Under the pieces are notes generated by a model. That model had not been told where the DNA came from. It saw nothing but the letters and a program-made list of their open reading frames with translations, and did not search any database. A stretch of 64,000 nucleotides of DNA from assembly GCF_046105845.1 (NCBI RefSeq), contig NZ_CP151004.1, one strand, 5' to 3'. Each line of letters opens with the position of its first letter. Within the stretch, counting starts at the first letter, position 1. The stretch is from Escherichia coli. Its GTDB lineage: Bacteria > Pseudomonadota > Gammaproteobacteria > Enterobacterales > Enterobacteriaceae. This document shows positions 17,589-17,755 of this stretch, one piece after another. The translations under genes were made by a program, and so were the position numbers.

Positions 17589-17755
17589 GTGAAGCCCCAG
17601 GAGCTTACATAAGTAAGTGACTGGGGTGAACGACAAATCCGCATGGAGCGGATTTGAACGCTGCTTGCAGCGGCCCTGTTAAGGGTGAGGCCCATGGATG
17701 GGCCGAATAACTCGCAGCCGCAGCACATGCAACTTGAAGTATGACGAGTATGGCA
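17589..17755. repeat. ERIC (IRU) element, long variant, immediately 5' of the yajO start codon
   Basis: GTGAAGCCCCAGGAGCTTACATAAGTAAGTGACTGGGGTGA ... CAGCCGCAGCACATGCAACTTGAAGTATGACGAGTAT matches the ERIC consensus as I recall it, with a ~70-bp internal insert; about 85% similar by eye to the copy at 32790-32950. Confidence 0.7.

Follow-up and report, generated by a model that had tools for sequence, protein, structure and literature searches.

Two long ERIC elements with a nested four-hairpin module lie upstream of yajO and acpH in Escherichia coli

A stretch of 64,000 nucleotides of Escherichia coli DNA (RefSeq assembly GCF_046105845.1, contig NZ_CP151004.1; the whole stretch is called the window below) carries two repeats of about 200 bp, one between dxs and yajO (copy A, at site A) and the other between queA and acpH (copy B, at site B). 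Both are genuine enterobacterial repetitive intergenic consensus (ERIC) repeats, that is, small non-autonomous mobile elements (MITEs, for miniature inverted-repeat transposable elements) of an already-known class, and both belong to the long subtype. We hold with good confidence that they are two old and independently inserted copies, each made up of the canonical imperfect palindrome and a nested four-hairpin module of 79-80 nt, which in both copies sits just 3' of the central ERIC hairpin.

The window has the ERIC core 19-mer AAGTAAGTGACTGGGGTGA at two places, 17611 and 32816, and nowhere else, against an expectation of 0.01 occurrences; copy A matches the 35-nt ERIC core exactly, and the conserved central inverted repeat (the ERIC1R/ERIC2 primer region, CCCCAGGAGCTTACAT / AAGTAAGTGACTGGGG) was found in both copies. 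Aligned with each other, the two copies show 83% identity across about 200 nt; both run in the sense direction of the gene that follows, and an alignment with four other long ERICs of E. coli backs the identity of both. The boundaries of copy A were taken from the empty allele of ATCC 11775 together with the short allele of K-12, and the flanks TA (17548-9) and TG (17751-2) represent a 2-bp target duplication; copy B is flanked by TA (32752-3) and TA (32955-6), the final A being the A of the acpH ATG. The terminal inverted repeats are of the TATAC...GTATA type (TA-GACTC...GAGTA-TG in copy A and TA-TACAC...GTGTA-TA in copy B), and the empty sites are one base off a perfect TA target. The long-stem folds of the two window copies have z-scores of -6.9 and -5.7. 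An earlier note on this DNA had placed ERIC-like elements of the long variant, with an insert of about 70 bp, at 17589-17755 and 32790-32950. Their presence and subtype are borne out, the insert being 80 nt in place of the AT of the short allele at site A and 79 nt in place of AG at site B; the true left ends, as defined by genomes with empty sites, lie about 40 nt further left.

ERIC elements, also called IRU, were reportedly described by Sharples and Lloyd in 1990, Hulton et al. in 1991 and Wilson and Sharp in 2006, and long variants with an internal insertion of about 70 bp are said to exist. The window copies share with them the central and terminal inverted repeats, the TA-type target duplication, the multi-copy occurrence, an intergenic location that would fall inside transcription units, presence or absence from strain to strain, and a long form with the insertion at a fixed site; we see no essential difference, and the window copies are members of the family. 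Reviews put the length of ERIC at about 127 bp and count about 30 copies in K-12, to which other strains add 14 sites (PMC3184786, PMC10969869). When copy A was used as a query, a median of 6 megablast places per E. coli genome was obtained, and copy B gave a median of one place per genome and no megablast cross-match to other ERICs. Many ERIC copies are present in other genera. Rfam holds no ERIC family, and only sub-threshold matches to families that seemingly contain ERIC-like sequence were obtained. Among these, the arms of ERIC A (17548-17746) gave partial sub-threshold matches to V_AS5 (Vibrio), Ysr49 (Yersinia) and isrH (Salmonella), which suggests that these published small RNAs (sRNAs) overlap ERIC-like repeats. 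In the K-12 reference, no annotated repeat feature was present in the first ~65 bp of the dxs-yajO gap, the stretch inspected.

A survey in which 5,426 complete E. coli genomes were searched with each intergenic region showed three states per site, namely empty, short ERIC and long ERIC. At site A the empty state is a 54-bp dxs-yajO gap (for example in ATCC 11775), the short ERIC adds 125 bp (K-12) and the long ERIC adds 203 bp (GF43 and the window); at site B the examples are ST131 and O157:H7 for the empty state, CFSAN061763 for the short ERIC, and PCN033 and the window for the long ERIC. An ERIC occupies site A in 2,843 of the 5,426 genomes, in about 119-131 of them in the long form, and site B in 821, of which about 139 are long. 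The short and long alleles of a site have the same locus-specific arms and differ by the exchange of AT (site A) or AG (site B) for the module. A clean indel between them, either a direct-repeat deletion or a simple insertion, was considered and rejected, as the junctions fit neither when two bases are replaced by 80 or 79 nt.

Orthologous copies in other species speak for the age of both insertions. The type strain of Escherichia albertii has the same long ERIC A at the same site, 98.0% identical to that of the window, against 84-95% for the flanking coding DNA; the site is empty in Citrobacter and Salmonella. For copy B, an orthologous long ERIC abuts the acpH ATG in Citrobacter freundii, C. 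koseri has a copy with a partly deleted module, and Salmonella is empty. ERIC B of the window is 89.3% identical to the C. freundii copy, compared with 77-85% for queA and acpH, and the 91 bp next to queA are 93% identical to C. freundii. These comparisons point to insertions that are old and to constraint, both elements being more conserved than the flanking genes. Concerted evolution is an unlikely cause of the conservation of ERIC B, since this copy has no cross-match to other ERICs. Also considered was that the long alleles had come in recently from E. albertii or Citrobacter; flanks at 84-95% and 77-85% identity, respectively, rule this out.

Both inserts are predicted to fold into four consecutive small hairpins inside the ERIC stem. 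A covariance model of the module, R1, scores module A at 91.5 bits and module B at 83 bits, both copies being part of its training alignment. The insert occupies the same position in five E. coli loci and in most copies of other genera, and a pattern taken from inside it was found at no fewer than 120 loci in one scan of species-representative genomes. Among the matches listed, most are from Enterobacterales (Serratia oryzae, S. silvae, Pectobacterium, Dickeya, Citrobacter, Klebsiella, Kluyvera, Hafnia and E. albertii), where the module usually has the same ERIC position, sometimes the mirror position in the left arm in direct (not mirrored) orientation, and in a few cases both arms. Within the E. 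coli collection, 650 of the 5,426 genomes have copies that resemble module A, and at the four loci examined these always lie inside an ERIC; module B, too diverged to be picked up by this search, is found in a further ~139 genomes at queA-acpH. In an alignment of 110 copies, 96.7% of the cells are paired and 287 cells have changes on both sides, where shuffles give 81% and 67; the covariation score is 0.466 (0.18 in shuffles and 0.04-0.09 in slid controls). In addition, E. coli and C. freundii differ in hairpin 2 of module B by changes that compensate each other. We infer from these alignments that the module hairpins are kept by selection, and the frequent G-U pairs favour an RNA in the module's orientation. 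Left-arm or two-arm carriers were seen at the loci L013 (5801-6014), L018, L026, L068, L077 and L086. Solo modules, remote from ERICs and tRNA genes, were seen at L057, L058 and L059 (all three Aliidiomarina), L118 (Pseudomonas) and L107 (693-778); they form a tandem array in L059, and some stand in what seem to be coding-region ends. A match of R1 inside xseB of the window (14575-14661, E 0.058) was treated as noise.

The module resembles two described groups of RNAs. The full-length model of Rfam family RF02902 (AaHKsRNA22) matches the same four-hairpin layout in module A at 25.2 bits, below the gathering score of 39.8, and solo and tRNA-linked module copies reach 30-37.5 bits, also below it; all module scores are thus sub-gathering, and RF02902, unlike the module, is described as an sRNA of Aggregatibacter (Pasteurellaceae) and not as a repeat. 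Module copies that follow tRNAs in distant Gammaproteobacteria match Rfam RtT at 34-36 bits, just under its gathering score of 45. The hallmark of a tRNA-linked repeat (TLR) is a 3' end that duplicates 18-19 nt from the 3' terminus of the tRNA or rRNA lying upstream (PMC8144298), and the tRNA-linked module copies (L010, L064 and L121) end with a copy of at least 16 nt of the upstream tRNA 3' end. The hairpin order and the conserved linkers GAAC, GGCCC..GGG.GAG and CGA(G/A)UAA are common to the module and the TLR cores. In contrast, the ERIC-nested copies have no such tRNA 3'-end repeat of 16-19 nt and stand outside tRNA and rRNA operons (those of the window lie between protein-coding genes), lack the upstream GGAUGAGAA..GGUUCGAC hairpin, and are carried inside a MITE. 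The insert of the long ERICs is probably, to judge from these shared features, a TLR/RtT-like core without the tRNA-end repeat. In the literature searched, no paper that treats ERIC together with tRNA-linked repeats was found, which is an absence of evidence only. The wider proposal is that the insert is a mobile RNA module of the RtT family, found after tRNAs across Gammaproteobacteria, solo, and in either ERIC arm in Enterobacterales, with hairpins under selection; in the window it would have been brought into the dxs-yajO gap and the acpH leader, where it could serve for processing or for the binding of proteins (RNase E, CsrA or Hfq). We advance this proposal tentatively and put its chances somewhat below even.

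The features discussed here are collected in Table 1. Gene identities were taken from the list of open reading frames (ORFs), the annotation of matching RefSeq genomes, and Pfam. The gene order of the window is thiI, xseB, ispA, dxs, yajO, islet A, pgpA, thiL, nusB, ribE, ribD, nrdR, yajI, tsx, yajD, secF, secD, yajC, tgt, queA, acpH, islet B and malZ, the two islets being AT-rich inserts of 31-41% GC against a background of about 53%. Islet A (GC 31-40%) has a Pfam Pentapeptide match, and its gene is annotated espY3 in O157:H7. Islet B (GC 36-41%) holds a gene which in the annotation of PCN033 encodes a hypothetical protein of 485 aa and which has no Pfam match. In the window this gene (33558-35015) is split into ORFs of 378 aa and 69 aa around 34023-34104, and it differs from PCN033 by 72 bp in length. 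With acpH and the start of the islet as query, no genome of the 5,426-genome collection reached 99% identity. Downstream of acpH, Salmonella and Citrobacter have, at about 1985-2594 of the loci L133, L134 and L135, a gene for a peroxiredoxin of the AhpC/TSA family, followed in Salmonella by a malZ-like gene, and E. coli has either islet B or nothing at this position, which makes the site variable across genera. Between yajO and pgpA, E. albertii has a diverged EspY-like pentapeptide-repeat gene (L012, 6121-7491; 31% amino-acid identity). Its presence at the same position suggests that islet A would be an old, fast-evolving effector locus and not a recent arrival, and the arrangement of the window at site A may be close to the ancestral state of Escherichia.

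Table 1. Positions of the two ERIC copies, their modules, the translation signals and the neighbouring genes and islets in the window
Feature	Position	Strand	Basis or remark
ERIC copy A, long	17548..17752; element 17550-17750 (201 bp)	+	between dxs and yajO
ERIC copy B, long	32752..32956; element 32754-32954 (201 bp)	+	between queA (divergent) and acpH
Module A, 80 nt replacing AT of the short allele	17634..17713	+	K-12 alignment, fold, RF02902, R1
Module B, 79 nt replacing AG of the short allele	32839..32917	+	CFSAN061763 alignment, fold, R1
Native hairpin, 5' arm (anti-Shine-Dalgarno, CCACTCCTGCTATG)	17518..17531	+	starts 9 nt past the dxs stop codon
Native hairpin, 3' arm, with yajO Shine-Dalgarno AGGAG (17755-17759)	17749..17762	+	pairs with 17518-17531
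AAGGA, likely acpH Shine-Dalgarno	32941..32945	+	inside the ERIC right arm, 10 nt before ATG
yajO coding sequence, aldo-keto reductase, 324 aa	17767..18741	+	Pfam PF00248, RefSeq annotation of matching genomes
acpH coding sequence, ACP phosphodiesterase, 193 aa	32956..33537	+	Pfam PF04336 from residue 1, RefSeq annotation
Islet A, AT-rich insert, EspY3-like pentapeptide-repeat gene at 18973-20529	18742..20710	+	K-12 boundaries
Islet B, AT-rich insert between acpH and malZ, hypothetical gene	33532..35128	-	ST131 boundaries

The earlier note had further stated that both ERICs end within about 10 nt of a start codon and that their 3' ends appear to supply the ribosome-binding regions of yajO and acpH. 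Both elements do lie immediately 5' of the genes; the actual distances are 14-16 nt at yajO (ATG at 17767) and zero at acpH, and the second statement applies to acpH and fails for yajO. At yajO, the Shine-Dalgarno (SD) motif CAGGAGTGGCAGCATG is the same in the empty allele and stands outside ERIC A, and its CAGGAG core is found without change in C. koseri, C. freundii and Salmonella, each of which has a 56-bp gap free of ERIC. The position of the motif outside the element and its invariance in ERIC-free genomes indicate that the yajO ribosome-binding site is native and not ERIC-supplied. The motif is part of a predicted hairpin in which it is masked by an anti-SD arm; the empty, the short and the long allele are all predicted to form it, at an opening energy of 19.5-24.3 kcal/mol. 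The hairpin is also kept in Citrobacter (C. koseri and C. freundii) and in Salmonella, where, relative to Escherichia, one pair is compensated from A-U to G-C. ERIC A occupies the loop of this native SD-masking hairpin and would keep its two arms together by folding on itself, and the effect of ERIC A on access to the yajO ribosome-binding site is predicted to be close to nil. The conserved anti-SD hairpin suggests that yajO may be translationally coupled to dxs, in that a ribosome terminating at dxs would melt the anti-SD arm.

At acpH, copy B abuts the ATG (32956), and all 203 nt upstream of it are ERIC. At the position of the likely SD motif AAGGA, other ERIC copies read GAAGTATGA and copy B and its Citrobacter orthologues read GAAGGATGA; AAGGA arises by a T-to-G change from the ERIC consensus, and the G is common to the short E. 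coli allele, C. freundii and C. koseri. As read from these alignments, the ERIC right arm is the entire leader of acpH, including a derived and likely SD. In the predicted fold, AAGGA and the first base of the AUG lie within the ERIC terminal stem, which would partly occlude the ribosome-binding site; its opening energy, calculated on chosen transcript ends and on the assumption that the whole ERIC is transcribed, is predicted to be 2.2 kcal/mol in the empty, 8.2 kcal/mol in the short and 6.2 kcal/mol in the long allele. An ATG inside hairpin 4 of module B is in frame with acpH (32902-32955) and gives an ORF of 211 aa in the window. Public AcpH annotations of 209-230 aa (P0011, P0005, P0003 and P0008; 211 aa in C. 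koseri, for example) match a start inside the ERIC. Such over-long annotations look like mis-called starts caused by ERIC B, and the in-frame ATG is a practical point for annotation of this gene.

The region of both insertions is probably transcribed together with the downstream gene: at copy A because the dxs-yajO gap without ERIC is 54-56 bp long and has no terminator, and at copy B because the element abuts the acpH ATG. If active at all, the ERICs would act post-transcriptionally, as RNA structure. De Gregorio et al. in 2005 are said to have found ERIC-dependent control of mRNA in Yersinia. Copy A likewise lies between two co-oriented cistrons. Yersinia ERICs are co-transcribed with their flanking genes and can expose an RNase E site in the terminal repeat, which alters the mRNA level of the neighbouring cistron (PMC3184786, PMC10969869). 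Entry sites for RNase E or RNase III might exist at acpH in the same way, and an effect of the ERICs on the expression of yajO or acpH would be plausible.

The simplest alternative is that both copies are neutral junk, inert remnants of selfish insertions that are tolerated because the palindrome folds away. The presence/absence polymorphism across thousands of genomes, the almost unchanged predicted accessibility of the yajO ribosome-binding site and the failure to find promoter or terminator motifs would all fit. The orthologous copies are, however, more conserved than their coding neighbours (98.0% versus 84-95% in E. albertii and 89% versus 77-85% in C. freundii), hairpin 2 of module B has compensated changes between E. 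coli and C. freundii, and the derived AAGGA at acpH is retained across genera, and we regard pure inertness as rather unlikely, if well worth bearing in mind. A more specific role, in which the module serves as a binding platform for CsrA or Hfq and puts acpH (and dxs-yajO) under Csr control, as proposed for RrA/B/F, is judged quite improbable. RrA/B/F, which are tRNA-linked-repeat RNAs, use GGA motifs to bind CsrA in vitro and also bind Hfq (PMC8144298), and both window modules have GGA in the loops of hairpins 1 and 4 (CAUGGAGC / CAUGGAUG and UCCGGAAC / CAUGGAUG), while the acpH SD region AAGGAUGA resembles a CsrA site. Of the 110 copies, 47 have GGA in loop 1, 47 have it in loop 4 and 40 in both loops, but more than half of the module copies, most of them in Serratia oryzae, Pectobacterium and Dickeya, have no GGA loops, and GGA would therefore not be a family-wide requirement; in addition, K-12, the source of the cross-linking and immunoprecipitation (CLIP) data, is without these modules. 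CsrA binding to the modules is a lead and not a finding. It is very improbable that ERIC B, instead of being a leader, supplies a promoter for acpH or alters that of the divergent queA-tgt-yajC-secDF genes. Although the insertion moves everything upstream of acpH 203 bp away, ends 91 bp from the queA start codon, and has a CATAAT/TATAAT hexamer just left of the insertion point in both filled and empty alleles, no sigma-70-like promoter was found in or around ERIC B on either strand, and the 91 bp beside queA are untouched and highly conserved (93% to C. freundii).

The earlier note had also proposed that the ERICs mark recombination-prone junctions next to the islets, with the caveat that this may be coincidence. 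The order ERIC, core gene, AT-rich islet is real at both sites of the window, and the ERICs lie about 1 kb from the islets, of which islet A is present in 932 and islet B in 1,126 of the 5,426 genomes. Queries that ran from the ERIC through the gene into the beginning of the islet served to sort the genomes by coverage, and evenly spaced rows were sampled. Among the 59 rows sampled at site A and the 60 at site B, respectively, a long ERIC with the islet was seen in 1 and 1, a short ERIC with the islet in 0 and 5, and the islet without ERIC in 10 and 7 (O157:H7, with espY3, being an example at site A and again at site B); a long ERIC without the islet was seen in 0 and 1, a short ERIC without the islet in 30 (e.g. 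K-12) and 3 (e.g. Nissle), and neither in 18 and 43. In these sampled rows, ERIC and islet are negatively associated at site A, and all six combinations of states occur at site B. A causal link between the ERICs and islet acquisition, by way of junctions that the ERICs mark or create, could draw on the proximity of about 1 kb at both sites, on the presence of an ERIC in 6 of 13 sampled islet rows versus 4 of 47 non-islet rows at site B, and on the greater divergence of yajO and acpH than of their flanks, a haplotype-block signature. The relation is reversed at site A, where about 10 of 11 sampled islet rows are without and 30 of 48 non-islet rows with ERIC; O157:H7 has both islets and no ERIC, and K-12 carries ERIC A, in its short form, without islet A; and a whole intact gene separates the ERIC from each islet, which means that the ERIC is not at the junction. 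Moreover, strain 104 has an identical long ERIC A with yajO followed directly by pgpA and no islet A, and MS1679 has an identical long ERIC B with acpH followed directly by malZ and no islet B, which is the observation that the earlier note had named beforehand as counting against the link; its caveat of coincidence was apt. Physical linkage within an old haplotype would be expected to produce the association seen at site B, the acpH region forming deep haplotypes. The divergence of yajO (95.5% to K-12) and acpH (93.4% to ST131), against about 98% for the flanks (97.7% around acpH), is a likely sign of old haplotype blocks around both islets, and a short stretch left of the site B insertion point is Citrobacter-like in filled and Salmonella-like in empty alleles. 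The states of ERIC and islet are separate polymorphisms on old, linked haplotypes; the islet link is refuted, and a role of the ERICs in making the junctions is improbable in the extreme.

Several points weigh against the reading of the two copies as old elements with a selected, TLR-like module and with a possible effect on their neighbours. About 48% of the E. coli genomes are without ERIC A and about 85% without ERIC B, and any function must be dispensable, as both ERICs are missing from many healthy lineages. Gene conversion among ERICs or recombination between species, rather than selection, could be part of the reason for the high identity of copy A across species. With regard to the kinship with tRNA-linked repeats, Rfam RtT (RF00391) gave no match at E <=10 on the window copy, and R1 matches all four tyrT units of K-12 in register but weakly (14-19 bits, E 0.001-0.02). 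In both intergenic regions, scans for promoters and terminators yielded nothing beyond what shuffled sequence would give, and an ERIC-borne promoter or terminator was not adopted. The folding energies at both sites are predictions on chosen transcript ends, and the class counts for the islets come from evenly spaced samples of the rankings (59 chromosomal rows at site A and 60 at site B).

The original observation is in itself ordinary, in that ERICs have long been known and their closeness to the islets reflects no mechanism. What is added to the ERIC family is the exact placement of two copies, in a hairpin loop at yajO and at the start codon at acpH, a three-state polymorphism at two loci, the presence of orthologues in E. 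albertii and Citrobacter, and the character of the insert. The two loci offer a natural series of empty, short and long alleles for measuring the effect of an ERIC on its neighbouring gene, with the contrast that the ribosome-binding site stays native at yajO and the ERIC appears to be the whole leader at acpH. That the ERICs are more conserved between species than the adjacent genes argues against their being pure junk. If the kinship of the insert with the tRNA-linked repeats holds, the biology of ERIC would be tied to that of the equally unexplained TLR/RtT family, and the mobile-module proposal, if true, would bring two orphan repeat families together, with a testable function for each.

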